NCBI GenBank assembly: GCA_034722955.1
Contig: JAYEOM010000060.1
Span: 1-14,728 of the forward strand
DNA from: Campylobacterota bacterium
Lineage (GTDB): Bacteria; Campylobacterota; Campylobacteria; Campylobacterales; Sulfurovaceae
DNA: 14,728 bases
Direction of reading: 5' to 3'
In this document: in pieces, positions 50-14,728 of the stretch
How positions within the stretch are numbered: the stretch's first letter is position 1
Layout: every line of letters starts with the position of its first letter
The notes under the pieces: generated by a model
Seen by the model: only the letters and a program-made list of their open reading frames with translations
What the model was told of the DNA's origin: nothing
Database searches by the model: none
Program-made: the position numbers and the translations under genes

Positions 50-2788
50 TTATGAAAAGATGTATAGTGAATCCCTGACACTCTCTATATCAAATGTCTC
101 TACACTATCTTGATATGCTATATCATCCAGCTCTATACTATACTCATGCTCCATATCACTTTTTAGATCTGTCAATATATCCAGTTTGTGCATCTGCACA
201 AATGTATCTTTGGTAGCTTCAAGAAGAGTATCTATATCACAGGCATGAGTCCCAAATGAGTCATGTATAGTGGCAAAAGAGTCTGTACCTTTTTTTTGTG
301 ACTCCAGAACAGTTAAAAACAGATGAGTGGCATCTAGCGAGTGGATAAAGTTGGGGGATATGCCTTTGGTCTGTTCTGTGTGATCTATCTTGTCTGTAGG
401 TATTCTGATCTGTATAGAGTATTTTTTGCCATTGTATTTTGTGGATATCTTATCTATCTTGGTCTTGAACTCTTCTTGTATCACCTCTAGTCCTATGATG
501 GGTGTCTTCCATCTCAACTCTCTGTTTTGTTTTGCTGACTTATTGGCTATCTTCTTCATCCACTCTTTATAGGTGCTCGATGATGATAGCTCTTGGCTCA
601 TAGCCTCCCCTATCTTGTCCCTTAGATATATAGAGATAGCATCTGTAGTCGCTTCATCCCATTGCAGTTTTTCTTGCAGATTGTCATTCAAATAATCTTT
701 TATCTGTGATAGTTTTGCATCGGCTCCTGCCCCATAAACTTCTGTCATGACATTTTTCTTGGTCAAATCCCTGCTAATCTCCAGATAGATTTCATCTATA
801 TATTTTTTCTCTATCCTTATCTCCGTTTTATCTTTTTTGATGATATATCCACTATCTCTATCTATCAGCTCTTTTGTCTTGATGGCAACATCTTTATAGA
901 TATCATTAGGTGTTTCTTGATCTTTTGATGGCAAAACATTGACTTTTGATGCTCCCTTTTTGTCTCGCAGGAGTGCAGTGATATGCTGGAAGCCATTGTT
1001 TGAGCCATCCATAGCTATAGGCAGAGCTGACTTGAAGTTGTCAGGATCTTCGATAAATCCTCTATACTCATAAGCAAATGCTAGAAAGCCATAGGGTTTA
1101 TCTGCCTTCCGCAAAAATGTACTATCAAATCTATCTCTGTTTGCAAAAATTCCAAGAATATCATCTTTGTGTATATCTATCCAATTGACCCTGTCATCAA
1201 AAGATATCTTGTCCTCGCCATAGAGATTTGCTCCGTGGATCTTGAACCACCTCTCACCACTCTCTCCTAGAGGCTTCTTGATAGCAAATCTCAGCAGTGC
1301 TTTTGCCAAATCGTCTCCTTGGGGATTGAGTAGTGGCTGTGCAGGGTATGTTCTGCCTCTGAAGTCTACCTGCCATACGAAGTATATCTCATCATATTTT
1401 GCATATTTTTTGGCTTTTTCGATAGTGAGTTTATCGATATTGATTTCACATTCGAGTGTACCAATGCCAGTCAGCACCTCCTGATGTGCCTCTCTCGCTC
1501 TTTTTTGTTCCTGATATTTCTCTAGGATATTTTCGTCTATCTTCTCCTCGGAAAACCCCATCTCTTCGAGCAGCTCTTTTTGTCCTTGAAGTTTTGTCTT
1601 TATCTCTTTGAGGGAGCTGTATCTTTTTTCTTTCTCTTTTTTCAGCTCTTTTATCCTCTCTTTTGCTTGCTCTTTCAGCAGCTTTAGATGACTCTCTATA
1701 TCATCGATCAGATCACTGTTTATCTGCCATTTGGTATCTTGTATTATATTGATGGCCTTGAGCAGTTTGGGGCTAAATGTCTCCCTGCGACTCTCTACAT
1801 TTTGTCCGTCTCTTTTGGTCTTTGATTTCATTATAGATAGGTCGTATTTTGGCGAGCTATCCAAATCCCTGAGAAACCCTCCATCATCTATAGTCGTCCA
1901 TGGAGTCGGGGGAACAATCATAGGTTCAAATGATGGTGGTGTATATTTGAGTATCGCATTGTATATGTTTCGGCTCTCTTTTTCAAATGCTTTGCTAAAT
2001 TTATAGTTCAGAAAGCCCCCATCTTTTTCGTACTCTTCTAAGATACCCAAATTTATCAATTCGGCAAAGAGCTCTATGGCTACATCTATCTCTGTATCGT
2101 TTTCCCAAGCCTCTATCTTGAGCTTGTCTCTTTTGAATCTAAAGGCGACATGTTCAAAGAGAGACTCTGCTATAGTATTGGTGATCCCTTGCCTGCTTGT
2201 AGAGTTGTCATCTTCGCTATGTAGATCTTTGACTAGTAAACCAGATAGAGTCTGGAGTGTTATCCATGCCACTTCACCACTGCTGAGCAGTATGGTGGCT
2301 AGAGACATAACCTGCTCTTTCTGCTTGAGCCCCAGCTCCTCTATACTGCTCTGTAGATCTACATTTTTATCTTTGAGTATTTCAAAAGTTCTCTTGATGA
2401 CAGATGCTTCGACTCTACCCTCTCTTTTGACTTTTTTAGGATTGAGACCGTAGATGGATTTGTCATTTACCTTGTCTTGCAATCCTATGGCAATATTTTT
2501 GGCTTTTTCTTTGAGATTGTAGTCTGGCAAACTCTCCTCGCCATACAGTTTGCATATCTCGCTTTTGTATCTATCGCTGATAAATATCTTCTCTATTACT
2601 TTGGGCATCTTTTTATTTCTCAGGGTACAGATCTCATCTGAGAGTCTCTTGAGATATATTTTGCTGAAGGTATCTTTGGTTGATCGTTTTTGATTTTTTG
2701 ATTTTTTGTCAATGATCTTTTGCATTTTCTCTTCAAAATCTTCGATAGTCTGTGATTGTAGTTTTAGCTGTTTTTCTCGCAGATTCAT
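50..2788 (-). CDS. T7/T3/SP6-like single-subunit DNA-dependent RNA polymerase (about 912 aa)
   Basis: All hallmark motifs are present in order: PMIVPPTPW, DFRGRTYP, LNPQGDDLAKALL, WFKIHGANLYG-DK, ADKP-FLA, motif A PIAMDGSNNGFQH, DIY, motif B RDLTKKNVMTEVYGA, PNFIHSLDATHL and motif C IHDSFGTH. Start moved from 2824 to the ATG at 2788 (MNLREK), which has AAAAGGT 7 nt upstream. Confidence 0.96.
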   Translation of the reverse strand: MNLREKQLKLQSQTIEDFEEKMQKIIDKKSKNQKRSTKDTFSKIYLKRLSDEICTLRNKKMPKVIEKIFISDRYKSEICKLYGEESLPDYNLKEKAKNIAIGLQDKVNDKSIYGLNPKKVKREGRVEASVIKRTFEILKDKNVDLQSSIEELGLKQKEQVMSLATILLSSGEVAWITLQTLSGLLVKDLHSEDDNSTSRQGITNTIAESLFEHVAFRFKRDKLKIEAWENDTEIDVAIELFAELINLGILEEYEKDGGFLNYKFSKAFEKESRNIYNAILKYTPPSFEPMIVPPTPWTTIDDGGFLRDLDSSPKYDLSIMKSKTKRDGQNVESRRETFSPKLLKAINIIQDTKWQINSDLIDDIESHLKLLKEQAKERIKELKKEKEKRYSSLKEIKTKLQGQKELLEEMGFSEEKIDENILEKYQEQKRAREAHQEVLTGIGTLECEINIDKLTIEKAKKYAKYDEIYFVWQVDFRGRTYPAQPLLNPQGDDLAKALLRFAIKKPLGESGERWFKIHGANLYGEDKISFDDRVNWIDIHKDDILGIFANRDRFDSTFLRKADKPYGFLAFAYEYRGFIEDPDNFKSALPIAMDGSNNGFQHITALLRDKKGASKVNVLPSKDQETPNDIYKDVAIKTKELIDRDSGYIIKKDKTEIRIEKKYIDEIYLEISRDLTKKNVMTEVYGAGADAKLSQIKDYLNDNLQEKLQWDEATTDAISIYLRDKIGEAMSQELSSSSTYKEWMKKIANKSAKQNRELRWKTPIIGLEVIQEEFKTKIDKISTKYNGKKYSIQIRIPTDKIDHTEQTKGISPNFIHSLDATHLFLTVLESQKKGTDSFATIHDSFGTHACDIDTLLEATKDTFVQMHKLDILTDLKSDMEHEYSIELDDIAYQDSVETFDIESVRDSLYIFS

Positions 2789-2805
2789 TGCTTTACCTTT
2801 TTGAT

Positions 2806-2827
2806 AGTTTGCACATATAGACAAAAG
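2806..2827 (+). repeat. 22-bp direct repeat copy 1, AGTTTGCACATATAGACAAAAG; candidate phage-type RNAP promoter
   Basis: Identical to 2878-2899. The CACATATA-G core resembles the T7 CACTATA-G and SP6 GACACTATA-G initiation regions. The repeat is seen directly; promoter function is inferred. Confidence 0.75.
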
Positions 2828-2877
2828 AGTCTCGTCTTAGATTTTAGATTATATCTATATTTAGTTGAGATTTCTAA

Positions 2878-2899
2878 AGTTTGCACATATAGACAAAAG
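2878..2899 (+). repeat. 22-bp direct repeat copy 2; candidate phage-type RNAP promoter
   Basis: Identical to 2806-2827, offset by 72 bp. Confidence 0.75.
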
Positions 2900-2941
2900 G
2901 TTTCAAAGCTTTGCGTCAAAATATAATACAAAGGAGAGTCA

Positions 2942-2995
2942 ATGCTATGTGAATTAGTATGCATTATAGTTAAAGAGATAGAAGAGAACCTTTAA
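2942..2995 (+). CDS. Mini-ORF A, 17 aa (MLCELVCIIVKEIEENL)
   Basis: Strong SD AAAGGAG just upstream of ATG 2942; stop TAA at 2993-2995. No recognisable homology. Confidence 0.4.
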   Translation: MLCELVCIIVKEIEENL

Positions 2996-3008
2996 CATAA
3001 AAAAATAC

Positions 3009-3049
3009 TGCCTGTGATGGCTAGAGATACTCGAAACAAAGAGTACTCA
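3009..3049 (+). repeat. 41-bp repeat R1 copy 1 (GCC-TGTGAT-GGC hairpin plus TACTC-N8-GAGTA hairpin)
   Basis: 38/41 identical to 3307-3347 by eye alignment. Confidence 0.85.
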
Positions 3050-3078
3050 TCATATTTAATACCACAAAAAGGATCCAA

Positions 3079-3165
3079 ATGATACCGATTCCAGTATGTA
3101 TACAGATTGTGACTGTTGTTGCAACAGCTGTAGCAGGGAAAAAGTTGTTGTCGGATAAAAAGTAA
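3079..3165 (+). CDS. Mini-ORF B, 28-aa hydrophobic peptide (MIPIPVCIQIVTVVATAVAGKKLLSDKK)
   Basis: SD AAAAGGA upstream of ATG 3079. About 19 hydrophobic residues followed by a lysine-rich tail, as in single-pass membrane peptides. Confidence 0.55.
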   Translation: MIPIPVCIQIVTVVATAVAGKKLLSDKK

Positions 3166-3177
3166 GGCTTATGCCTT

Positions 3178-3200
3178 TATGTGTAGCTTGAGATAGCTAT
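3178..3200 (+). repeat. 23-bp repeat R2 copy 1 (TAGCT-TGAGAT-AGCTA hairpin)
   Basis: 21/23 identical to 3590-3612. Confidence 0.8.
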
Positions 3201-3227
3201 CTACCATTTATTACAAAAGGAGCTTAA

Positions 3228-3284
3228 ATGCTGAAATTAGAAAAACTCACAACCGTTGTGCTGCCTCCGGTTCTATGGGTGTAG
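3228..3284 (+). CDS. Mini-ORF C, 18 aa (MLKLEKLTTVVLPPVLWV)
   Basis: Strong SD AAAAGGAG upstream of ATG 3228. Its start context (TACA-AAGGAG...AATGCT) mirrors mini-ORF A. Confidence 0.4.
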   Translation: MLKLEKLTTVVLPPVLWV

Positions 3285-3306
3285 TGTGTTTGCAGAGATA
3301 GTGTGT

Positions 3307-3347
3307 TGCCTGAGATGGCTAGAGATACTCAAACCAAAGAGTACTCA
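3307..3347 (+). repeat. 41-bp repeat R1 copy 2
   Basis: 38/41 identical to 3009-3049. All three differences fall in predicted loops. Confidence 0.85.
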
Positions 3348-3370
3348 AAATTTTTTTCAAAAGGATTGCA

Positions 3371-3583
3371 GTGAGAGTATCGTATCACGCGGGTGAGAGG
3401 TTTTTACAGAGGGTATTCAAGTTTAGAGACTATACCAAAAAGCAGGTTTTAAATGCTATGAAATTGATAGAGAGAGATATATCCCATATCGAGTATCGCC
3501 ATTCAAACTTTGTACTGCCCTCTTTTCCCAACTACAGATGTATCGTAGCGGACAATACTTTAGTGACCATCGTACCCAAATGA
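3371..3583 (+). CDS. Small protein D, 70 aa, possible RelE/BECR-fold (DUF4258-like) RNase
   Basis: GTG start with SD AAAAGGA. The N-terminal S-x-HA-x-ERF-x-QR and C-terminal LVTI strand are a pattern seen in small BECR-type proteins. The fold call is an inference. Confidence 0.65.
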   Translation: MRVSYHAGERFLQRVFKFRDYTKKQVLNAMKLIERDISHIEYRHSNFVLPSFPNYRCIVADNTLVTIVPK

Positions 3584-3589
3584 TGAGTC

Positions 3590-3619
3590 TATGCGTAGCT
3601 TGAAATAGCTATTTTTTTT
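3590..3619 (+). terminator. R2 copy 2 hairpin (TAGCT-TGAAAT-AGCTA) followed by T8; candidate intrinsic terminator of the mini-ORF array
   Basis: 5-6 bp stem with a T-tract at 3612-3619. It overlaps the stop codon and last Lys codons of the convergent minus-strand gene, so the T-run may partly reflect coding. Confidence 0.5.
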
Positions 3620-5426
3620 GCATTTTCAAGATCTCATCTCTAAACTCCAATATTTCACTTTTGCTGAAACTATGCTCATCAAAACCAAAAAATCCAAACC
3701 CACCCCCATAGTAGGCTTTTTGCTCCTCTACTATATGTCGAAACATTGTGACTATCTTCTCTATACCATCTCCATAGTAGTTGAGTTTGCTGTCGTTGTA
3801 GATCAGTATATTTTTACCATAGAGTCTGTCGGCTATAGGTGAAAACTTATCTGTGAATGCCTTGACTACTGTAGTATTTCCCTCTTTTTTTTGCATTTTT
3901 ATAGATTCTATCGCCAATTGCTCATCTTTTTTGGTAACTCCTTGGGCTTTTCTATCTTTTTTGCGTATCTCATCTATCTCGTTTTGGCTTGCACCAAACT
4001 CTCTCATAGCTGGTATGTATCCGCTGTCATTGAGGGCTATGAGCATCTCCTGCCTGCTCAGTTGTACCCCTAGCGTATCAGCTACCTGTTCCAGTGAACT
4101 CTTGTTTTTTTGTTTCTCATTGTGGTGGTCTATAGTTAGATAGTTTGCCGGTAGTTCTATATCTTCTATGAGTTCTATACCTATATATAGATAGTTGTTT
4201 TTGAGTCGGTCGCTATAGCTACCGAGCTTTGCCCCCCATGATAGAGAGTGATCATAGTAGACTTGAGCATATCTATCTAGCAGCTTTTTGATAGTTCTCA
4301 TCTCCAGGTCATATCCGCCGAGTAGAAAAACTCTCTTTTTTAGTTGGAAAAATGGTGATATCTTTTTGTGAAATTTCTTTGTACCAAAGGTATGGGCATT
4401 GTATATCTCTATACTATTTGTGATCGCTCTGAGTTTTGCATTTTTGCCAAACAGTGTTTTGGGTTTTTGTATTTTGTGGCTATTGTCAGGATATATATTG
4501 ATGATCATATTTTTGCTGTCATCACCGAAGTATCCCAGCAGGGAGTCGCTCTTGTAGATGATATCCTGAGCTGATATATTGTCTCCGAGTTTGCACTCTA
4601 TGGTATAGATATGGTTCTCCTTGATAGCCAGTATATCAAACTCGTTGAATATCTCTATATCATAGGGATCATCCTCTGCAGAGTCAAAGAGCAGTACCGC
4701 ACCCACTTTAATATCGTCAAAATCGTAACACAAAAGGCTAAGATAGGTAAACTCCTCAAACAGCGTACCAAAATAACTGATATTTCTCAATGCCCTGTAG
4801 TCACTCCCTATCATACCTAGATCTATAAGAGCCTCTATCTGCCCAGGGTATGCAGAGGCTATCGCCTGTAGTCTGTTCTGGTGCAGGTATCTCCTGATCC
4901 TAAAGAGGATATTGAAGTCGCCAAAGAGCAGCAGCAGTGACTTTTTTTTGCTCAATATCTTCGCTTTATCTATCTCATTGGTGAGTTGATAACCCAGAGA
5001 GAGTACAAAGTCATCTACCATCATGTTGTGGGTGATAGTGTGACTGCCAAATCCACTCTCATCTATCAGATTGTAGCTATTTTCGAACTTGTCATAGGCT
5101 ACTATCTTGCCCCCATTGTGTAGGATAGACCCAGAGAGTACGACTAGCAGTGCGGTATCTGCATTGGTGGCATTGAGATAGAGTTCTGTAGTATCGATAC
5201 CATTGATATGGTTTTGGATGGAGAGCATATCTGCCTTGGAGTCCTCGTCTACCTCTATGAGCTCCACCTCTTGTGCTAGTGATACTATCCATCTCTGTAT
5301 CTTGAGTGCATAGTGCTTCTCTTTGTCGTCGTAGATGAGTATATGTTTGGTTGTTCTATCTATAAATTCAAAGATGATGGGTACAAGCTCGTGGAGGTCT
5401 CTGCTGATGATAGTGATGAGTGTCAT
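3609..5426 (-). CDS. Fusion of a Card1/Can2-like CARF + PD-(D/E)xK nuclease (DUF1887-like) with a C-terminal NrN-like DHH phosphodiesterase (about 605 aa)
   Basis: N-terminal Rossmann/CARF-like start MTLITIIS...LYLNATNAD. Nuclease motifs GTLFEEF and NEFDILAIKENHIYTIECKLG. From about 4340 a second domain: RVFLLGGYDLEM, LSWGAKL, IDHH, SSLEQVA, NDSGYIPAM, DRKAQGVT. The ATG at 5426 is preferred because the 5630 start would overlap corA. Confidence 0.75.
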   Translation of the reverse strand: MTLITIISRDLHELVPIIFEFIDRTTKHILIYDDKEKHYALKIQRWIVSLAQEVELIEVDEDSKADMLSIQNHINGIDTTELYLNATNADTALLVVLSGSILHNGGKIVAYDKFENSYNLIDESGFGSHTITHNMMVDDFVLSLGYQLTNEIDKAKILSKKKSLLLLFGDFNILFRIRRYLHQNRLQAIASAYPGQIEALIDLGMIGSDYRALRNISYFGTLFEEFTYLSLLCYDFDDIKVGAVLLFDSAEDDPYDIEIFNEFDILAIKENHIYTIECKLGDNISAQDIIYKSDSLLGYFGDDSKNMIINIYPDNSHKIQKPKTLFGKNAKLRAITNSIEIYNAHTFGTKKFHKKISPFFQLKKRVFLLGGYDLEMRTIKKLLDRYAQVYYDHSLSWGAKLGSYSDRLKNNYLYIGIELIEDIELPANYLTIDHHNEKQKNKSSLEQVADTLGVQLSRQEMLIALNDSGYIPAMREFGASQNEIDEIRKKDRKAQGVTKKDEQLAIESIKMQKKEGNTTVVKAFTDKFSPIADRLYGKNILIYNDSKLNYYGDGIEKIVTMFRHIVEEQKAYYGGGFGFFGFDEHSFSKSEILEFRDEILKMQKK

Positions 5427-5486
5427 ATCGCTACTTTTTAATTTAATTTTATCCAAAAGTGCTATCATAAGAGCTAAAGGATTTGT
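5427..5486. promoter_or_regulatory. 60-bp divergent promoter region between the CARF-nuclease/NrN gene and corA
   Basis: Plus strand: extended -10 TGcTATCAT at 5460-5468 and SD AAAGGA at 5476-5481. Minus strand: -10-like TATGAT (5469-5464) and TAAAAT (5451-5446). Confidence 0.5.
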
Positions 5487-6767
5487 ATGCCACAAGATAT
5501 ATATAGTTGCCATACTTTTATGTTGCCATTTATCATAGAGTGCTATGATCACAAGAGAGAGATCATCGAAGCCAAAAGCTGGCAATATAAGGAACACAAA
5601 GACAACTATAATGAGATAGCATATTTTCATAGCTTCTTCAAAGATAGTATGTTTACCAAAGATAAGGATGCAAACTCTTCATTTTATACCAAAGATGAGT
5701 ATAGGGATAGTCAGTTTGTCATCAGCAGATCAAAAGAGTATGAATTAAATCTTAAAAGTGTAAACCTTAGAGTGTTTAAGACAGGTGTAGGGATATTATC
5801 TTTTCATATAGAAAATAGATCATATTCAGATATCAAAGATATCCTGGAAATCAATGACTATGGCAGGAGAATCTATCCCGAATATTTAGATGAAAAACTC
5901 CAATGCACTCTTGTCCCAAACTATATTCGATTAAAAGATATAAAAGAAGATTTTAGATACGATCAACAACCCACAAAAATAAAACTCTCAAAAATCATAA
6001 CAGAGTTTCTACCAGAAGAGAAAATAAGAACAGCCATAGATGATAGAATGTTCGTTATAAGTTTTTACAAAAACAGTAGTTTTTCAAATGATCTGAAAAG
6101 AGATTATATGAAAAATAGTAAGTGGTATGAGTATATTTTCATAGATGGAAATGGTCTCAATGTCCAAAATCGTGAAATGCAAAACAATCTAGTCAAAAAA
6201 GCCACCTATCCCAGATGGCAGGGCTATGGTACTATGTATGGTATCAGCAGATACTCTTTTGTATGTGTGGCAGATGAGAGTGAGTTTATCAGAGAGACTG
6301 TTGAGGTGCATATGCAGACGATCTATTTTCAGATGTTTTCTCTACTCTTGATGCTGAGGGCTACTATATTGAAGTTCTCCAAAGAGGTGAGTGATATAGC
6401 TAAAGAGATAGACACTAAAGGCACAGATATTAAAGTCGAAGATCTATACAAACGATATATACAGTTCGTAAATAGCTTCTACTTCAGAGAGATAACAGCC
6501 AAAGACCAAGGTCTAGAGCTATATGATCAAGCTAGAGAGATACTGAGGATAGATAGTGACATCAAAGACTTGGACAATGAGATAGGGGAATTGCATAGAT
6601 ATGTCTCAATGATAGAGGGCAATGAGAATACCAAAAAAATGGATAGATTGCAATATTGGGGTTTTCCTCTGCTCTTTTTGTCTCTTATCACTGGTTTTTT
6701 TGGTATGAATATATTCCCACAAGGCTTTTTAGACACCATATCCAATTGGCTTAAAGCGTTATTTTAA
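5487..6767 (+). CDS. corA: CRISPR type III-associated CorA-family membrane effector
   Basis: Large soluble N-terminal domain (IDDRMFV, TYPRWQGYGTMYGISRYSFV, YFREITAKDQGLELY), then a TM helix ending in the CorA signature ITGFFGMN. First gene of the cmr operon. Confidence 0.88.
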   Translation: MPQDIYSCHTFMLPFIIECYDHKREIIEAKSWQYKEHKDNYNEIAYFHSFFKDSMFTKDKDANSSFYTKDEYRDSQFVISRSKEYELNLKSVNLRVFKTGVGILSFHIENRSYSDIKDILEINDYGRRIYPEYLDEKLQCTLVPNYIRLKDIKEDFRYDQQPTKIKLSKIITEFLPEEKIRTAIDDRMFVISFYKNSSFSNDLKRDYMKNSKWYEYIFIDGNGLNVQNREMQNNLVKKATYPRWQGYGTMYGISRYSFVCVADESEFIRETVEVHMQTIYFQMFSLLLMLRATILKFSKEVSDIAKEIDTKGTDIKVEDLYKRYIQFVNSFYFREITAKDQGLELYDQAREILRIDSDIKDLDNEIGELHRYVSMIEGNENTKKMDRLQYWGFPLLFLSLITGFFGMNIFPQGFLDTISNWLKALF

Positions 6768-6776
6768 GGAAAAAAA

Positions 6777-7787
6777 ATGAACAAAAGTAAATTTAAGGCA
6801 GAGTTCACACTGAAACAGCACACCCCAATCATCCATTTCCAGAGTGGTCAGAACGGAGCAACGCTGAGGGCTACAGAGTTGAAACCGAAGTTTGACAGGT
6901 TTTTATTGCACAATGTTGAAGATATCCCATTCATCAAAAATGCCAATGGACACAAATCATTGGATTATAAAGTAACTATTGCAATAAATGGGCAAGGGGT
7001 TAAAGGCACTCCCAACAACTTTTTGTATTTTGCCAATAATTCAGCTCAAGGAGATGAATTTAAATACACTATCAAAAGTCAGAGTGTTATCGTTACTTTC
7101 TTTTCATACAGAACTGATTTGATAGAATCAATAAATAGATATTTTAATGATTTTTTACTGATTACAAACTTTGGATCCAGAAGTACAAAAGGGTATGGTA
7201 GTTTTGGTAAAAGTATAGAGAATGCTGAAACTGTATTAAGAAAATATTATCCAATTGTCTTCAAGATAACAAATGTTGGCGACATAAGTAAATGGGAAGT
7301 TAAAGTTGACACTATTCACAAAAAATTAAAATCTGGAATCAATTTCATACAATATCATAAATCTTTACTTTTCCAATACATGTGTACCCAAAACATTAGA
7401 TGGGAAAAGAGAAATATCAAAGAGAAGTTTTCAGTTTTAGCAACAGGAAAGCCCCCGATAGACTGCGATACAAGAGGTCAATATAGATATATCAGAGCGA
7501 TGTTGGGAACTGCCGGTATCAATGAATATGACAGAGGTAACAAAACTGTAACGATAGATGGTGGAGAGATAGAGAGGTTTGCCTCTCCAATTATTTATAA
7601 AATTATTGGAAACAGCATATATCTTCTAGGAGATAAAAGTTATGAAAAGATAATGGGTAAACCTTTTATTTTTCAGTATAAACAAAGCAGTTTCACCATT
7701 AATACACCATCCAAAAGTGAATTTGATTTGCATAAATTTTTAAAGTTTGTAGAGAAAAATGACAATATAATCAGTGAGGTAAAATAG
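6777..7787 (+). CDS. cmr1: Type III-B RAMP Cmr1 (B. fragilis-like)
   Basis: LKQHTPIIHFQ...ATLRATELKPKFDRFL N-terminus, G-rich loop NFGSRSTKGYGSF, ERFASPI; lies directly before cas10. Confidence 0.85.
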   Translation: MNKSKFKAEFTLKQHTPIIHFQSGQNGATLRATELKPKFDRFLLHNVEDIPFIKNANGHKSLDYKVTIAINGQGVKGTPNNFLYFANNSAQGDEFKYTIKSQSVIVTFFSYRTDLIESINRYFNDFLLITNFGSRSTKGYGSFGKSIENAETVLRKYYPIVFKITNVGDISKWEVKVDTIHKKLKSGINFIQYHKSLLFQYMCTQNIRWEKRNIKEKFSVLATGKPPIDCDTRGQYRYIRAMLGTAGINEYDRGNKTVTIDGGEIERFASPIIYKIIGNSIYLLGDKSYEKIMGKPFIFQYKQSSFTINTPSKSEFDLHKFLKFVEKNDNIISEVK

Positions 7788-9056
7788 ATGACCTACATAG
7801 CACTAACCATAGGACCGATATACAAGACACTGGCAAATGCCAAGAATCCCAAAGAGCTTTTTGCAAGTAGCTATATCTTTAGCTATATTATGAGAAATAT
7901 CATCAAAGAGTTCAAGAGTAGAGAGTTTGTCATCCCCTATATAAAAGATGACTCTATCTTTGATGAGAGCAGTAAAGTGGGTCTTTTTCACGACAGATTT
8001 ATTTTTAAGTCACAAGAGCAAGAGAGTGATATCTATAAACTAAAAAGAGTCATTGAAAATATCTCAAAAGATACAGCATCCAAGCTAGGGTTGAATCATA
8101 AAGATGTAGAAGAGTATCTACAGATAAATTATTTGGCAAAAGAGATAGGTGATGAAAATCCCATAGAAGCACTCAGCCCCTATCTAGATACAAAAGAGCT
8201 TTTTTATCAACTCTCTTCTAGTGATAGCTTTATCTCATCTCTTAGCAGAAAAAAGGGAGACAGAGATAATTTTCTTACAGCCAATAAAAATATCATAGAT
8301 GATTTGAAGAAGCTTTCGTATCATAAATACTACTGTGTCGTGCATGCCGATGGTGACAAGATGGGCGAAGCTATCAAAGATAAAGCCAATATAGAAAATA
8401 TCTCCAAAAGTCTTTTTGGTTACTGTATGGAGTCAAACCATCTCATACGAGAGTTTGGAGGTCAAACCATCTTTGCAGGGGGTGATGACTTGATGTTTAT
8501 AGCACCTACGATCTCAAGAGATAGAACAAAAACTATTTTTGACTTATGCGAAGATATATCACAAAGTTTCAACATAGATAAGGCAACACTGAGTTTTGGT
8601 ATCAGTATAAACTATATAAAATATCCACTCTATGAAGCAGTAGAAAACTCAAGAGAGTTACTTTTTGACAAAGCAAAAAATGAGCAGAGAAACAACATAG
8701 CCTTCAATATCACAAAACACAGCGGTCAAAGCTTCAGTACTGTGATACACAAAGGTGATGATGAAATTTACAGTAAATTTTTAGCTTTTACCTCAAGTGT
8801 AAATGACAAAGACAATATCGGTAACTTCCTAGACTCAATACATCACAAGATAGCTACATATGAAACCACATTGTCAAATATCAAAAATGACAAAACCAAA
8901 CTAACAAACTTTTTTGTTAACTACTTCAATAAAGATGAGCATAAAAATAACAAAGAGTTTTTTGATCATTTAGTGGATTTCATCTATGTAGCAACCATAG
9001 AACAAGTCTATACAACACTTAGATTTATCAAGTTTATTCAAGGAGATAAGTCATGA
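7788..9056 (+). CDS. cas10: Cas10/Cmr2, compact, no HD domain, intact GGDD palm
   Basis: YIALTIGPI...ELFASSYIFS, YCVVHADGDKMG, IFAGGDDLMF, TLSFGISI..KYPLYEA. Confidence 0.95.
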   Translation: MTYIALTIGPIYKTLANAKNPKELFASSYIFSYIMRNIIKEFKSREFVIPYIKDDSIFDESSKVGLFHDRFIFKSQEQESDIYKLKRVIENISKDTASKLGLNHKDVEEYLQINYLAKEIGDENPIEALSPYLDTKELFYQLSSSDSFISSLSRKKGDRDNFLTANKNIIDDLKKLSYHKYYCVVHADGDKMGEAIKDKANIENISKSLFGYCMESNHLIREFGGQTIFAGGDDLMFIAPTISRDRTKTIFDLCEDISQSFNIDKATLSFGISINYIKYPLYEAVENSRELLFDKAKNEQRNNIAFNITKHSGQSFSTVIHKGDDEIYSKFLAFTSSVNDKDNIGNFLDSIHHKIATYETTLSNIKNDKTKLTNFFVNYFNKDEHKNNKEFFDHLVDFIYVATIEQVYTTLRFIKFIQGDKS

Positions 9057-9376
9057 TAGATATTGAAAAAATAAAAAAAGATATTCCTGTAATGCTGAAA
9101 TCTTTAGATATAAACAAAATCATCCTTTTTGGCAGTTATGCTTATGGAACCCCTCACAAAGACAGTGATTTGGATATCTGTATAGTTGAAGAAAAGGTAG
9201 TGTCAAAAATGCAAGAAAAGAGAGAGATCAGAAAACTTCTTGGCGAGATAGATATGCCAATGGATATTATTCTAGTAGATGAAGATTACTATCAAACTCA
9301 TAGTGATAAAAATTGGATAAATACTGCCCTATATGATGCCAGACAAAAAGGAGAGATTTTATATGAAAAAGAATGA
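9053..9376 (+). CDS. Minimal nucleotidyltransferase (MNT) antitoxin-like protein
   Basis: IILFGSYAYG...DSDLDI Pol-beta motif plus a third Asp in MDII; 107 aa. Confidence 0.9.
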   Translation: MIDIEKIKKDIPVMLKSLDINKIILFGSYAYGTPHKDSDLDICIVEEKVVSKMQEKREIRKLLGEIDMPMDIILVDEDYYQTHSDKNWINTALYDARQKGEILYEKE

Positions 9377-9767
9377 TATAAAAAATAGTGCCGATCTATT
9401 TTTGTATAAAGCAATAATTGATTTCAATACTGCAAAAGCTATTTTTAAAAGCTTTGAAAATGATGATATTGAGATATATATAGAAAAAATATATTTTGAT
9501 TTGCAGCAAAGCAGTGAAAAGCTTCTCAAAAACCTTCTATCCAAAAATGGTGTAGATGTTCCAAAGATTCACGATATAAAGCAATTAATAAGAGTTTGTG
9601 AAAAAAACAATATCAATCTTATGAGTAGAGTAGAGGTATTGATAGATTTGAGTGATTATGCAGTGGAAGGTCGCTATGACATTATCTGTGATGATATATC
9701 AAATAGTGATCTCTATTTTGAATTGGTAGAACAGTTTATAATATTTGTAAAAGGAGACAAAGCATGA
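9363..9767 (+). CDS. HEPN-domain protein (MNT-HEPN pair)
   Basis: FDLQQSSEKLLK...VPKIHDIKQL...DYAVEGRY fits the HEPN family consensus (F-x-x-QQ-x-x-EK-x-LK...P-x-x-HD...RY). ATG 9363 with a GGAG SD is preferred over 9333. Confidence 0.85.
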   Translation: MKKNDIKNSADLFLYKAIIDFNTAKAIFKSFENDDIEIYIEKIYFDLQQSSEKLLKNLLSKNGVDVPKIHDIKQLIRVCEKNNINLMSRVEVLIDLSDYAVEGRYDIICDDISNSDLYFELVEQFIIFVKGDKA

Positions 9768-10729
9768 GATATCTAGTCACGCTTACACCACTAGAGCCTT
9801 TTCTGTTCGGAGGAGATACGACTTTTGGCAAGAAGGGCGATGAGGAGAAAGGCACCTATCTGGTCAAATCACGGCAATTCCCTCAACAGAGTGCAGTTTT
9901 GGGGATGCTCAAAAAAGAGATCATGACCCAGTCAGGAGTTTTGACACGCAAAGTGAGAGGTGAATGGGTAGATAAGCAGAAGAAAAAAGAGGCAGAAGCT
10001 CTAGTAGGAGTTGAAAAATTTGATATAGGCTCTGAAGGTTTACAGGATTTTGGTATTATCAAATCTCTTGGTTCGATCTTTTTGATACAGGAGCAAAAAC
10101 AATATATCAAAAAAGTAGATATTGATTCTTATACTTACAAAGATGGCTTACTAGAAAGCTATAATCCAGAAATAGATATTTATGATAATTTTGTAGAGAC
10201 AAAAACAAGTGAAAAATTATCATCAGGCGATATCTTCAAACCCATAGAGCAGACAGGCAACAAGACAGGAGGAGAGGATGACTCACTCTTCAAAAAAACC
10301 TCCTATCTACTAAAATATGATTTCAAGTTTGCATTTTATCTTGAGTGCGAGTATGAGTTGAGAGACTCCATCATCCATCTAGGAGCAGACAGAAGCAGCT
10401 TCAAGCTGGAGATCAGAGAGGATAATGACAGTTTGGAGTATAGTGATGAAAATGGCTATTTGACACTCATGAGCGATGCCTATATCACTCTACCTATCAA
10501 AGAACATTGTGTTTTTGCTATTACTAGTGAGATAAGTTTCCAGAGCTTACAGAACAAAAAGCATGCGACCAAGAGTAATGCATTTCAAAAAAGTACAAAA
10601 ATATTTCTCTATGAGAAAGGTTCAGTTTTTATAAACCCATCGGATGAACTAGTAAAAAACCTAAACAATAAAAACTGCCAACGGATCGGTTACAATAAAC
10701 ACACTTACGAAAAAGGACAAAATAGATGA
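9764..10729 (+). CDS. cmr3: Cmr3 (Cas5-family RAMP)
   Basis: YLVTLTPLEPFLFGG, S..FPQQSAVLGML, LGADRSSF, LYEKGSVF, IGYN; position in the operon. Confidence 0.9.
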   Translation: MRYLVTLTPLEPFLFGGDTTFGKKGDEEKGTYLVKSRQFPQQSAVLGMLKKEIMTQSGVLTRKVRGEWVDKQKKKEAEALVGVEKFDIGSEGLQDFGIIKSLGSIFLIQEQKQYIKKVDIDSYTYKDGLLESYNPEIDIYDNFVETKTSEKLSSGDIFKPIEQTGNKTGGEDDSLFKKTSYLLKYDFKFAFYLECEYELRDSIIHLGADRSSFKLEIREDNDSLEYSDENGYLTLMSDAYITLPIKEHCVFAITSEISFQSLQNKKHATKSNAFQKSTKIFLYEKGSVFINPSDELVKNLNNKNCQRIGYNKHTYEKGQNR

Positions 10730-11574
10730 AAACAGAACTATACACCATAGAGACACTCAGCAACCTCCATGTAGGAGCAGGGGATATCAACTTTGATGTC
10801 ATAGACAACCAAGTGCAGAGAGATGCCATCACCAACCTGCCCAATATCAATAGCAGTAGTCTAAAGGGTGCCTTTAGAGAGCATTTCACACAGTATGATA
10901 GTGATGGCAAAAAGCTGGATGATACACTGATGGTCAAGTATATCTTTGGAGGTGCCAATGATGATGAGAACTCTCATGCTACAGGAGCCTATAGTTTCTT
11001 TGAGGCACAGCTACTTACTCGACCAGTACGAAGCGATGCCAAGCCATACTTCAACGCTACAAGCCCCTCAGTCATCAAGAGTCTGTTAGATACGATAGAA
11101 AATTTCGATATAGAGTTTAATAAAGAATTAACACAAGCACTTACAAACCTTTCAAAGTTGAATCCTCAAAAAAATAATCCTATTATCTTTGAAGATATTC
11201 CAAAGACCAGACTCGAAGATGATCCAGCCAAATATCAAAACTTTGATGTCTCGAAACTTACAGAATTTTTAGGTGTTGATCTTGCACTCTTTGCAGATAG
11301 TGATTTCGCAGAATTAGACCTGCCTGTACTAGCTAGAAATGCACTCGAAAATGGAGTGAGCCAAAACCTCTGGTATGAAGAGGTCGTACCCAAAAAGTCC
11401 AAGTTTTTCTTCTGCATCGGCAAACCAAATATAGACAATACAGACCCAAAAGATTATGATCAGAAGATCAAAGGGTTTGAAAACAGATTTGGCACAGAGG
11501 GTCACAAAGTACAGTTGGGAGCCAACAAATCCATAGGGTATGGATTTAGTCTGGTCAAAAAGGTATCGTTATGA
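10726..11574 (+). CDS. cmr4: Cmr4 (Cas7-family backbone RNase)
   Basis: LHVGAG...VIDNQVQRD...PNINSSSLKGAFRE, ARNALENGVSQNLWYEEVVP, QLGANKSIGYG. Confidence 0.95.
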   Translation: MKTELYTIETLSNLHVGAGDINFDVIDNQVQRDAITNLPNINSSSLKGAFREHFTQYDSDGKKLDDTLMVKYIFGGANDDENSHATGAYSFFEAQLLTRPVRSDAKPYFNATSPSVIKSLLDTIENFDIEFNKELTQALTNLSKLNPQKNNPIIFEDIPKTRLEDDPAKYQNFDVSKLTEFLGVDLALFADSDFAELDLPVLARNALENGVSQNLWYEEVVPKKSKFFFCIGKPNIDNTDPKDYDQKIKGFENRFGTEGHKVQLGANKSIGYGFSLVKKVSL

Positions 11575-11957
11575 GCAAGAAGAGCATAGAGAGGTATATA
11601 CCCAAGGCGATAAAGGTGTTGGATGCTACTTTTGATGACGGTGTTATCCCATCAGCTTACAATGGATATATATCTTCATTTGGTGCGAGTGTGATGCAGA
11701 GTGGACTGCTACCTACGCTAGCACTATTTGAAAATACCAATGCCTCCACAAAGGAGAACAAAGAGTATCTATCGTATCTCATAGTCAATATCCTAAGAGA
11801 CAACAGAGATGATGTTTCACTCCTGAGAGAGGTATTGGTTAGAGAAGAGCGTGGAGAGAGTCGCAACCATCTCAAAGAGCAGATACTAGATATATCTATA
11901 GCCATCAAGTTAAGTATCAGAACTTTCAAGCTCAAAAAAGGTGATAAAGATGAGTAA
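11571..11957 (+). CDS. cmr5: Cmr5 (Cas11 small subunit)
   Basis: 128 aa, helical, YNGYISSFGASVMQSGLLPTLA; lies between cmr4 and cmr6. Confidence 0.88.
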   Translation: MSKKSIERYIPKAIKVLDATFDDGVIPSAYNGYISSFGASVMQSGLLPTLALFENTNASTKENKEYLSYLIVNILRDNRDDVSLLREVLVREERGESRNHLKEQILDISIAIKLSIRTFKLKKGDKDE

Positions 11958-12900
11958 TCCAAATCTAGGTTGGCTCTTTTATAAGGATTATTTCACCGCT
12001 ATAAGAGACTGGACCAATCCAAAAGCAAATGAAAAGGATATATCCAGAAAAGTAGATGAGTTGATAAAAAAAACTCCAACCATAAAAGAGACAGAGATAC
12101 TAGGCTCTACACACTTCAAAGCTACCACTACTTATCCAGGACTGCTGCTAGGCAGCGGCAATGCACATGAATTGCCAGGTATTGAAGGTCAAGCCATATT
12201 GGGCTTTCACTTCGACTACACCAGCGGATTGCCCATCATCCAAGGCTCATCTATCAAGGGAGTGCTGAGAAGTGCGTTCAGACATTGGGAATATATAGCA
12301 GAGATCGGGGGTGAGACTTTAGTCTCACTGATAGATGTAGAGAACTTGGAAAGAGAGATATTTGACAACGGTGATATATTTTTCGATGCACAGATCATCA
12401 GTGGCGGCAGGATACTAGGCGATGACTACATCACACCACACGGTGACGATCTACTCAAGAATCCCATACCCCTGAGATTTATCAAAGTCCTGCCCAATGT
12501 GACATTTAGGTTTGATTTTGAGTTGAGTGACGGGATTTTGGAAAAGGATAAAAAAATCATACTCTTTACTAAAATAATAGAAGATTTAGGAGTAGGAGCA
12601 AAAACCAATGTAGGGTATGGGAAGTTTGATATAGAGGATATGGAGCAACAGATAAAAAAGGAGCAACAAAAACTCAAGAGAGAAGAGGCGGAGAGTAGAG
12701 TAACTAGTGCTAATGATGACTACAGTAAAGCCATCGCACTAATAGATGCCACTATAAAATTGGACAATAAGCTTTTTAAAAATTTACGAGATGAAGTTGA
12801 ACTAGATAGCCATGAAAAGAGCAAGGTCAAAGAACATTTTGATAGCAAATTTGAGGGTGATAGTAAATTTAAAAACAGGATACACAAGATATTAACTTAA
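11950..12900 (+). CDS. cmr6: Cmr6 (RAMP)
   Basis: NLGWLFYK, YPGLLLGSG, GFHFDYTSGLPIIQGSSIKGVLRS, DYITPH, NPIPLRFIKV, GVGAKTNVGYG. ATG 11950 is preferred over GTG 11941. Confidence 0.93.
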   Translation: MSNPNLGWLFYKDYFTAIRDWTNPKANEKDISRKVDELIKKTPTIKETEILGSTHFKATTTYPGLLLGSGNAHELPGIEGQAILGFHFDYTSGLPIIQGSSIKGVLRSAFRHWEYIAEIGGETLVSLIDVENLEREIFDNGDIFFDAQIISGGRILGDDYITPHGDDLLKNPIPLRFIKVLPNVTFRFDFELSDGILEKDKKIILFTKIIEDLGVGAKTNVGYGKFDIEDMEQQIKKEQQKLKREEAESRVTSANDDYSKAIALIDATIKLDNKLFKNLRDEVELDSHEKSKVKEHFDSKFEGDSKFKNRIHKILT

Positions 12901-12990: not shown

Positions 12991-13227
12991 GTGACCATAC
13001 GAAAAAACTTTACTATGTCAGACTCTGTTGTGATGGATTTGGAATATCTCGCTAAAAAATTGCACAAAAAACAGTCTCAAGTGATACAAGAGCTTATAGT
13101 CCATAAAATGAAAGAGTTTGAAAAAGAAAAAAAACTAGATATGCTGGAGAAGATATCGGGAATATTTACGGGCAAGATACCTGAAGACATATCGATACAA
13201 TCCATAAAGTCAGATAGTGAAAATTAG
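12991..13227 (+). CDS. Ribbon-helix-helix (CopG/VapB-like) antitoxin
   Basis: N-terminal strand IRKNFTMS followed by two helices (..LEYLAKK..KQSQVIQELI); overlaps the PIN gene. Confidence 0.75.
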   Translation: MTIRKNFTMSDSVVMDLEYLAKKLHKKQSQVIQELIVHKMKEFEKEKKLDMLEKISGIFTGKIPEDISIQSIKSDSEN

Positions 13228-13648
13228 AAGGATTTTTTTTGATGCCAATATTTTCAACGATATATTTGATGAAAACAGAGTCCATCATAACTCTAGCAAA
13301 GAGTCTTTGCTCTATGCTCTGCAAAATGATATAAGATGCTGTACCAGTTGTGATATAGTTACCAATATCTACTACATAACTGCCAAATACACTTCAAAAA
13401 ATCAAGCATTGGATGCCCTTGACTACCTAAAAGAGATAGTGGAGATCATCCCTTTTTCTTACGAAGAACTCACCATTGCGATAGATCTGATGAAGAGAGA
13501 CGGTGAGTATAAGGATATGGAGGATACTATACAGTATATTTTAGCTATAGAGCAGCATTGTGACTTGATCATCTCAAATGATAAACGATTTGTCTCTAAA
13601 GAGATAGAGTGCGTAAGCAGTGATGATTTTGCAAATTCTCGCAGATAG
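13217..13648 (+). CDS. vapC: PIN-domain (VapC-like) toxin
   Basis: IFFDANIFND, DMEDTIQY, IISNDKRF acidic PIN motifs; 143 aa. Confidence 0.88.
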   Translation: MKIRRIFFDANIFNDIFDENRVHHNSSKESLLYALQNDIRCCTSCDIVTNIYYITAKYTSKNQALDALDYLKEIVEIIPFSYEELTIAIDLMKRDGEYKDMEDTIQYILAIEQHCDLIISNDKRFVSKEIECVSSDDFANSRR

Positions 13649-13656
13649 AAAAGTCA

Positions 13657-14728
13657 ATGTATACAAAACCTCTCTCCTACATCACCCTCCCGTCAGCTCT
13701 CAAGGATGCCTACGAGGAGATCAGCAAGCTCTCCAGTGGACTTGATGAGGTGAGCTATGCAGAGTTCGAGAGGGAGCTTGGCAAAAATATAGCACAACTA
13801 TCACAAAGACTCCAAAGCGGACTCTACTCCCCAGAACCACTCAAAAAGATAGAGATAGACAAGCCAAACTCTGATGAGAAGCGCCCCATAGCCCTATCTG
13901 CCATCAAAGACAAGATAGTCCAGAGAGTGCTATATAAAAATCTAAATCCATACTTTGACAAGCTCTTCTCTGACAAATCCTACGCCTACAGACCTGACAA
14001 ATCTACCATAAAAGCGATCAATAGAACTACGGATTTCCTGAACAAAAAGAGACTGCATATCGTCAAGACCGATATCGACGATTTTTTTGAAACTATAGAC
14101 CATGATATACTTCTAGAGATACTCGATACTCATATCTCAGACAAAAGCATCACGCGGCTCATATCACTCTTTGTGCAGGTGGGAGGGTTTCAAAACTTTG
14201 ACTATAGTAGCCATCTGCAGGGCATCCATCAGGGGGATATACTCTCCCCGCTCCTCTCCAATATCTATCTGGATGTTATGGATAGATTTCTAGAGAAGCA
14301 TGATATCGCTTTTGTGAGATATGCCGATGACTTTGTAATGCTCTTTAAGAGCAAAAATGAAGCCTATGGTACCCTCAAAGAGTTGAGAAAATTTCTCAAA
14401 ACCATAAAGCTGACTCTCAACAAAGAGAAGACCAGCGTCACACATATCAGTGATGGTTTTGACTTTTTAGGTATAGAGTTCAAAGGCAGAAACAGGCATA
14501 TCCAAAACGAAAGACTCCAAAGATCCGTATCCAAGATAGCCCAACTCTCCAAGACAAAGCTGGGATTTGCAGCGTTTACCAAAGAGCTAAACAGCTATCT
14601 ACTGTCGCTCAAAAACTACTATCTCAAGATACTCACACCCAATGCCCCACAACACAAGCTACTCCAGGATGCCCTCATAGCTACCCTATCACACAAAGTT
14701 TATCTCTCCAAAAAGTCAAAAGAGATCA
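13657..14728 (+). CDS. Group II intron-like CRISPR-associated reverse transcriptase, 3'-truncated by the window edge (probably RT-Cas1)
   Basis: Hand translation from ATG 13657 stays open to the window end: SSGLDEVS (RT0), IDKPNSDEKRPIAL, KDKIVQ, SYAYRP, KTDIDDFFETIDH, GIHQGDILSPLLSNIYL, FVRYADDF (YADD at 14320-14331), FDFLG. The Cas1 part is not visible and is inferred from context. Confidence 0.92.
   Translation, partial: MYTKPLSYITLPSALKDAYEEISKLSSGLDEVSYAEFERELGKNIAQLSQRLQSGLYSPEPLKKIEIDKPNSDEKRPIALSAIKDKIVQRVLYKNLNPYFDKLFSDKSYAYRPDKSTIKAINRTTDFLNKKRLHIVKTDIDDFFETIDHDILLEILDTHISDKSITRLISLFVQVGGFQNFDYSSHLQGIHQGDILSPLLSNIYLDVMDRFLEKHDIAFVRYADDFVMLFKSKNEAYGTLKELRKFLKTIKLTLNKEKTSVTHISDGFDFLGIEFKGRNRHIQNERLQRSVSKIAQLSKTKLGFAAFTKELNSYLLSLKNYYLKILTPNAPQHKLLQDALIATLSHKVYLSKKSKEI

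Follow-up and report, generated by a model that had tools for sequence, protein, structure and literature searches.

A 22-nt sequence present in two identical copies beside the gene for a T7-type RNA polymerase in a Campylobacterota genome is probably the cognate promoter of that polymerase, as judged from sequence comparison. This reading had been proposed in an earlier note on the same DNA, and its sequence-level predictions were borne out: the element recurs opposite the polymerase gene in homologous loci, has a core of the expected pattern, does not look like a host promoter and is missing where the polymerase is missing. The window, i.e., the whole stretch of DNA that was analysed (14,728 nt), is one complete contig (C60) of a source genome assembled into 140 contigs (2,512,544 bases, 40% G+C). 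The features at the center of the argument are the following.

50..2788, minus strand: gene for a T7-type single-subunit RNA polymerase, 912 aa (PF00940, E 6.6e-94)
2806..2827, plus strand: promoter-like repeat copy 1 (P1), AGTTTGCACATATAGACAAAAG, exact 22-mer, predicted +1 at G2820
2848..2876, minus strand: host sigma-70-type promoter of the polymerase gene, TAGAAA-17 nt-TATAAT, between both repeats (consensus scan, 10 of 12 positions)
2878..2899, plus strand: promoter-like repeat copy 2 (P2), AGTTTGCACATATAGACAAAAG, exact 22-mer, predicted +1 at G2892

The polymerase is an intact T7-type enzyme, based on its domain match, its aligned residues and its modelled fold. Its start codon is the ATG at 2788 on the minus strand, in agreement with the N-termini of homologues. 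The best solved relative is the T7 RNA polymerase (E 2.7e-70, residues 279-880 aligning with T7 260-850), and alignment to the T7 record shows that the T7 catalytic positions are retained as D594, K677, Y685, and D843, which we take from the T7 literature to be the catalytic Asp, Lys, Tyr, and Asp, respectively. The specificity loop can also be aligned to that of T7; the position of T7 Q758 is conserved in all loci but one, and those aligned to T7 748 and 756 are variable among loci. In the T7 enzyme, the AT-rich recognition loop belongs to the N-terminal region, and the N-terminal region of the window polymerase aligns unreliably with the T7 part bearing this loop. An AlphaFold model (pLDDT 86, pTM 0.81) displays a T7-like fold over the full length, and its best structural match is the T7 promoter complex 1cez (TM 0.64/0.67), elongation complexes scoring about 0.5. 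A polymerase with both its catalytic residues and its specificity loop is thus encoded in the same element as the repeats. Single-subunit polymerases are found in phages, organelles, and linear plasmids, and the closest phage enzymes share about 32% identity with this one across 77% of its length. The family is rare, being present in 3 of 400 other genomes of the order and in 1 of 60 relatives, and PADLOC has no model for it.

As the earlier note had stated, the two 22-mers on the plus strand match without any mismatch, they lie upstream of the polymerase start and on the opposite strand, and G2820 and G2892 are the bases that directly follow TATA in the two copies. Its description of the copies as tandem was less apt: they are direct repeats, 72 nt apart from start to start. 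Given the polymerase ATG at 2788, copy 1 is located 18 nt and copy 2 90 nt upstream of the start codon. P1 falls within the predicted 5' leader of the divergent polymerase mRNA, and the upstream edge of P2 abuts the -35-like hexamer of the minus-strand host-type promoter, with its predicted +1, G2892, 50 nt 5' of the first micro-ORF. Similarity between the copies covers 29 nt at 90% (2799-2827 versus 2871-2899) and ends sharply, and the 50-nt spacer between them is unrelated to the sequence 3' of copy 2, which argues for conservation of a short element and not for duplication of a segment.

Within the window, AGTTTGCACATATAGACAAAAG has only these two matches at up to 3 mismatches; 200 dinucleotide-preserving shuffles gave a mean of 0.00 matches to the 22-mer, and none of them reached two. 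Searching the whole genome at up to 3 mismatches also returned the window pair only. The next-nearest site (4 mismatches, C79:1001) is surrounded by unrelated sequence, and at up to 6 mismatches across the genome only unrelated sites were otherwise found. In DNA contigs from four runs (X2-X5), related strains span both repeats with few differences in 2804-2919, one of these being a 1-nt deletion at 2839, between the copies. The repeat folds at only -1.3 and -0.6 kcal/mol (z 0.2 to 0.9), no better than shuffled sequences, and thus lacks the stable hairpin of an N4-type promoter. No Rfam family matched the window at gathering scores, and none matched 2780-3650 at E values up to 5.

Both copies point toward an array of very short ORFs, interspersed with two repeated non-coding elements named E and H and arranged as follows (L-numbers designate homologous loci).

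2942..2995, plus strand: micro-ORF C, 17 aa, MLCELVC..., with an AGGAG ribosome-binding site 5 nt upstream; relatives in L012, L009, L016, L015, and L007
3009..3054, plus strand: element E copy 1, GCCTGTGATGG and a hairpin with a GAAAnnAA loop; conserved in polymerase-linked arrays
3079..3165, plus strand: micro-ORF A, 28 aa, hydrophobic, MIPIPVCIQIV...; kept in L010 (two copies), L012, L013, L016, and L007
3180..3199, plus strand: element H copy 1, hairpin TGTGTAGCTTGAGATAGCTA; repeat family D13
3228..3284, plus strand: micro-ORF B, 18 aa, ...VVLPPVLWV; relatives in 8 loci
3307..3352, plus strand: element E copy 2, 88% to copy 1; repeat family D4
3371..3583, plus strand: ORF D, 70 aa, ...SYHAGERFLQRVF..., last gene of the array; conserved across loci
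3592..3619, plus strand: element H copy 2 (hairpin 3592-3611), then T8; weak fold, -3.5 kcal/mol as DNA

The strongest support for the promoter reading comes from homologous loci, which were drawn from a genome-collection contig (L007, the sole locus returned by a single-protein scan), from a metagenome scan (L008-L087), and from related genomes. The DNA upstream of the polymerase gene could be read in 13 loci, the window included, and the motif is present in 10 of them (window, L005, L007, L009, L010, L012, L013, L015, L016, and L017), on the strand opposite the polymerase gene and 25-175 nt from its start codon. The earlier note had reasoned that absence of the repeat beside homologous polymerase genes would speak against a promoter; where it was found, it is always divergent from the polymerase gene and precedes small ORFs. 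The three loci without such a motif upstream of the polymerase gene (L018, L019, and L023) encode more distant polymerases (36-43% identity over partial alignments) and have no E/H array upstream. Searching four related genomes with an 18-mer added nothing beyond L005. In one genome, G097, an 18-nt version of the motif gave 23 matches at 3 mismatches versus 3 for the reversed control, scattered over many contigs.

With the copies aligned on the base that follows TATA, the motif consensus consists of ATTTTCAAAG, a variable stretch of five bases, the core ACATATA, and GA, after which the sequence is rich in A. Its conservation profile comprises a fixed core from -7 to +2, a variable segment at about -12 to -8, and purine-rich transcribed bases; the 9 contiguous bases that make up the invariant block have no partner to pair with. 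Of the 19 copies from which the profile described below was built, 16 have GA right after TATA, as the window does; in L012, TATA is followed by AG, and L010 has TACA followed by GG. The element thereby combines an A/T-rich segment suited to melting at -4 to -1 with a purine (G) start, and it is one contiguous unit of about 20-23 bp (about -17 to +6) and not a bipartite -35/-10 arrangement, a span that is kept in the other loci. Copies within one locus show 1-3 differences in 21 positions or none at all, a similarity that could also stem from recent duplication or gene conversion. Differences between loci are centred on the five bases at about -12 to -8, the ACATATA core being near-invariant. 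A shared core with a locus-specific stretch at -12 to -8 is seen in about 10 related loci, uncorrected for kinship, and with so few related loci this variation, and its covariation with the specificity loop, are inseparable from shared descent. The motif is retained across loci whose polymerases are only 37-59% identical.

Each locus carries 2-4 copies, and the motif usually recurs further out from the polymerase gene. All copies point away from this gene; what follows them is either a small ORF with a ribosome-binding site, at a distance of 22-57 nt, or, close by, an E element or another copy. In the clade of the window (window, L010, and L012), no further copies precede the inner ORFs, and the motif is therefore not needed ahead of every gene.

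The motif is also concentrated on the array strand. A loose pattern had 22 matches in the 9,115 nt of array strand, versus 39 in the other 178,589 strand-nt of the same loci, and these 39 matches show no extended similarity. A profile was built from 19 motif copies, the two of the window included, and searched against 3.58 Mb, consisting of the whole genome and 1.07 Mb of loci, among them dozens of T7-like phage contigs. Above 13 bits there were just the training copies, which match by construction, and nothing else exceeded 10.4 bits; the best-scoring matches were the two window copies, both part of the training set. The L005 variants were missed by the profile, showing that divergent versions can escape it. 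The earlier note had envisaged further copies at CRISPR leaders or cas genes, an expectation that was not borne out, either in the genome (mismatch searches) or in the loci (profile), and the apparent regulon would consist of the peptide array alone.

Relatives of ORF D allow the polymerase and the array genes to be considered separately. Such relatives exist in 11 of 400 other genomes of the order, 3 of which also carry the polymerase, along with array elements. The remaining 8 gave no PF00940 match, under conditions where two positive-control genomes matched, and neither E nor H nor an extended motif was present within 1.5 kb on each side of their D genes, the only matches being two isolated core-like ones 500-700 nt away. 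Since the motif, E, and H are missing where the polymerase is missing even though D is present, these cis elements travel with the polymerase and not with the cargo gene. Copies are thus found 5' of genes and in gene orientation, and are absent without the polymerase. Two of the three polymerase-bearing genomes with ORF D belong to a distant polymerase clade, in which a different repeat, CCCAAGTRGTGACTAAAGAGAA, directly precedes each E and may be that clade's own promoter. In this clade (L099, G117:C39, 4100-4700, and L106, G097:C47), the array is convergent with the polymerase gene.

Transcription of the polymerase gene itself is likely to follow a different route. Inspection by eye of the DNA separating the motif from the polymerase ATG revealed a TAnnAT box in 9 of 9 loci, in many cases with TG ahead of it; in this phylum, sigma-70-type -10 hexamers (TAnAAT type, ending in T) are often TGn-extended. 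The motif copies, also inspected by eye, have no TAnnAT box in register and do not qualify as sigma-70-type promoters. This suggests that the polymerase gene is transcribed by the host enzyme and the array is not. No conserved host-type promoter was seen by eye on the array strand upstream of the first motif copy. A host-transcribed polymerase that transcribes the rest by itself is the logic of the early and late genes of T7. In the same 9 loci, the motif and the -10 box of the polymerase gene are arranged back to back, the upstream half of the motif overlapping the region about 12-32 nt upstream of this box. Judging by this geometry, and by the position of copy 1 in the polymerase leader, autoregulation of the polymerase, by binding to the repeat or by head-on firing, is plausible, and occupancy or firing would probably damp polymerase synthesis.

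The proposed sequence of events would run as follows. The host polymerase would transcribe the polymerase gene from the sigma-70-type promoter located between the repeats, and the single-subunit enzyme would then bind the contiguous element from about -17 to +6. The TATA segment would melt and transcription would start on the plus strand at G2820 or G2892, yielding one transcript with a purine-rich leader that presumably extends through C, A, B, and ORF D to the hairpin and T-run at about 3592-3619. Occupancy or firing of the repeats would probably feed back on the polymerase gene as outlined above. An auxiliary factor for the polymerase, as used by mitochondrial polymerases, is possible.

The repeats could instead be operators, or a special type of promoter for the host RNA polymerase acting with some regulator or sigma factor, which would control both the polymerase gene and the array. 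The position of the two copies, one upstream of the -35 element of the polymerase-gene promoter and the other in its leader, is indeed a classic repressor geometry; the window copy contains a partial dyad, TTTG-N3-ATAT-N3-CAAA (12 of 18 positions), and the 70-aa product of ORF D could bind DNA. However, the dyad is, by eye, not retained in other loci, and no regulator, sigma factor, or DNA-binding domain was found in the conserved module, so that the combination of a conserved dyad and a nearby regulator gene expected for a dimeric factor is not seen here. Further copies are hundreds of nt from the polymerase gene, right before small ORFs and in a single orientation, which is hard to reconcile with operators of the polymerase gene, as are the lack of a TAnnAT box in register and the absence of such a site at the ORF D relatives of polymerase-free genomes. 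Consensus elements of sigma-54 and sigma-28 fit the conserved positions of the motif poorly. Control by a regulator or sigma factor of the host is, on balance, unlikely.

Another possibility is that the motif acts in RNA processing, stability or translation, or marks a junction of cassette duplication, transcription starting elsewhere. The array is modular and its non-coding elements E and H look structural; moreover, in several loci the motif is directly 3' of the E hairpin and shares its 3' arm, and copy 1 would be transcribed as its complement in the polymerase leader. Against such a role, the repeat forms no stable fold, its invariant 9-mer is unpaired, no conserved host-type promoter was seen by eye 5' of the first copy on the array strand, and no recombinase is conserved in the loci, making an RNA signal or a duplication junction a rather improbable account of the repeat. 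As for a chance event or a neutral local duplication without function, the existence of only two copies in the genome could be viewed in this light, but the shuffling result and the sharp edges of the similarity argue against it, and conservation across loci with such divergent polymerases already contradicts it; we regard it as extremely improbable. The cognate promoter of the adjacent T7-type polymerase is hence the explanation retained here.

If so, the cargo of this promoter would be an unusual one. The short ORFs C, A, B, and D have good ribosome-binding sites, and the order logic of the array recurs across loci, with D always last. Recognizable peptide motifs are ..LPPxLWV in B, HAGERFLQRVF in D, and two cysteines in C, whose members are 12-17-mers. 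None of the products A, B, C, and D could be assigned to a family, and ORF D has no match in Pfam, NCBIfam, PADLOC, or PHROGs. In a protein atlas, D-like proteins are seen in phages as well.

Two copies each of E and H are located between the ORFs of the window. In the window, element E consists of GCCTGWGATGG and a hairpin. Across loci, GCCTGWGAYGG is invariant, and the hairpin that comes after it has 6 bp and a GAAAnnAA loop; 27 copies were found in polymerase-linked arrays (L005, L007, L009, L010, L012, L013, L015, L016, L017, L099, and L101). Its stem shows covariation: all 6 of 6 pairs are changed on both sides, and 85% of cells are paired versus 24-60% when slid. An E element has peptide B or C on its 5' side and A or D on its 3' side, or it lies shortly 3' of a promoter copy; it may be a 5'-leader, attenuator or processing element specific to polymerase-linked arrays. 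A kinship of E with CRISPR repeats was considered and dropped: the L016 repeat shares 8 nt with the complement of E, but no such match is seen for L015, L101, L018, and L011. A hammerhead-like reading of E was ruled out on inspection. The H hairpin, TGYGTAGCTTGARATAGCTA, is placed 3' of both peptide A and protein D; it is conserved in other loci, where changes on one side of its stem are compensated on the other (by eye). A T-run is found 3' of the last H copy only, and H copy 2 with its T8 is likely the end of the array transcript.

The polymerase and its array are embedded in a CRISPR-Cas environment, whose features in the window are listed here.

3609..5630, minus strand: CARF4-PD-(D/E)xK nuclease fused to a CorA-associated DHH hydrolase, convergent with the array (PADLOC DHH_CorA 3.1e-73, CARF4--CARF_PDDEXK 1.2e-42)
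5487..12900, plus strand: type III-B module with CorA-like effector, Cmr1, Cas10/Cmr2, MNT/HEPN pair, Cmr3, Cmr4, Cmr5, and Cmr6 (domain and PADLOC matches)
5487-6767, plus strand: CRISPR-type CorA
9053-9767: minimal nucleotidyltransferase/HEPN pair between cas10 and cmr3
13217-14727: PIN-domain gene, then a reverse transcriptase running off the contig end

The longest ORF of the CARF-nuclease-DHH gene overlaps the CorA start by 144 nt; since homologues are about 600 aa long and the family match begins at residue 69, its true start is probably an internal Met downstream of 5630. By its gene content, the DNA next to the array is a type III-B/CorA CRISPR-Cas locus, with the polymerase and the array at its edge; Cas10/Cmr2, Cmr1, Cmr3-6, a CRISPR-type CorA, and a CorA-associated DHH hydrolase occur together in it. 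The contig does not include the CRISPR array of this locus. Linkage to III-B/CorA genes is seen in all loci with enough flanking sequence (window, L009, L012, L013, L015, L019, and L016), the L016 set being partial, with a CARF-nuclease gene and a CRISPR array by the polymerase. Ordinary chromosomal genes lie outside these CRISPR-polymerase loci, and there are no phage genes around the polymerase. In Campylobacterota, the polymerase and the peptide array accompany type III-B/CorA CRISPR loci as a conserved accessory. An MNT/HEPN insertion adjoining cas10 or cmr3 is also present in L009, L012, L013, and L019. Among the result listings of a literature search, there was no report of a single-subunit polymerase linked to CRISPR, and a term search found neither "RNA polymerase" nor "RNAP" in three papers on type III accessories and CorA signalling (PMC10600005, PMC11229360, and PMC6546367).

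The closest known systems are the polymerase-promoter pairs of the T7 group (T7, T3, SP6, and K11), which likewise combine a single-subunit polymerase, alike in fold and catalytic motifs, with a contiguous element of about 22 nt that has TATA right before a G start. The T7 promoter phi1.1A shares TATA and the following GA with the window motif in register, even though in-register identity outside -4 to +2 is low, at about 9 of 23 positions by our own count. As in the T7 group, loci share a core, a short upstream stretch varies, and the transcribed start is purine-rich. The polymerase gene of T7 (gene 1) is served by a host-type promoter, as the window polymerase gene would be. Unlike the T7-group enzymes, however, the window polymerase is chromosomal, has no phage genes nearby and is found inside a type III-B CRISPR-Cas locus; its core is ACATATAGA and not that of the T7 group, and a few micro-ORFs are its only apparent targets. 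Mitochondrial single-subunit RNA polymerases belong to the same polymerase family, and in yeast mitochondria, promoters are short A/T-rich nonamers that end at the start site, to which the L012 variant, ACATATAAGA, bears an apparent resemblance. In contrast to the T7 enzyme, mitochondrial enzymes show lower sequence similarity to the window polymerase; they need separate initiation factors, and no initiation-factor gene is evident here.

With regard to the CRISPR module, type III-B systems with CorA and DHH (NrN-type) accessories are of the SAM-AMP signalling type (PMC10600005). The loci described here resemble them in their CorA-like effector, DHH hydrolase, Cas10, Cmr1, and Cmr3-6, the same set being present in the 7 loci with enough flank, but add the polymerase gene and the peptide array, and in the window the DHH hydrolase is fused to a CARF-nuclease. 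Toxin modules tied to CRISPR loci are known as CreTA, and small toxic peptides from type I toxin-antitoxin systems. The very small hydrophobic peptide encoded beside cas genes by ORF A (28 aa) is reminiscent of both and would, if toxic, suit the notion of a toxic cargo linked to CRISPR function. In contrast to CreTA, no antitoxin RNA or CRISPR-repeat-like element was identified at the array, whose expression would apparently depend on a dedicated polymerase and not on Cascade repression.

The mechanism proposed here would thus be that of a phage-type promoter, its novelty residing in the chromosomal, CRISPR-linked setting and in the micro-peptide cargo. Tentatively, and with less confidence than for the promoter itself, one can imagine that a T7-type RNA polymerase domesticated by Campylobacterota forms, with its private promoters, a host-independent circuit for III-B/CorA CRISPR, whose sole cargo would be the micro-peptides A (possibly membrane-active), B, and C and protein D, punctuated by the RNA elements E and H. 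Should a phage silence or take over host transcription, or should the CRISPR signal rise, growth-arresting products might in this way be kept on or be switched on, as an abortive-infection or back-up arm of CRISPR immunity; we consider such a role conceivable but doubtful. If true, a chromosomal polymerase in a III-B/CorA locus that is aimed only at micro-peptides would represent a new kind of CRISPR accessory, and would raise the question of whether an immune system can use its own transcription machine to remain expressed when host transcription is attacked. In practical terms, the window provides a candidate for an uncharacterised, compact polymerase/promoter pair for method development, and since the sister pairs (L009, L013, L015/L016, and L005) differ in the presumed specificity bases, they could serve as a ready-made set for orthogonal expression.

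Lastly, some observations concern CRISPR arrays in the source genome and in related loci. Two arrays of the source genome (C43, 16520-17071, and C109, 38-360) have related repeats ending in GGGGATTGAAAC, and the C43 repeat carries the 8-mer ACATATAG in its loop. A link between this 8-mer and the promoter core was considered and discarded as probably due to chance, the related C109 repeat being devoid of ACATATAG and the flanks being unlike the motif. In addition, the leaders of CRISPR arrays located by polymerase genes contain up to four copies of TTTGCGAACTTTT at intervals of about 100 nt (L016, 6100-6440; L015, about 12750; and L011, 4640-4870), and one of the L011 copies lies directly 3' of a ACATATAGG core.
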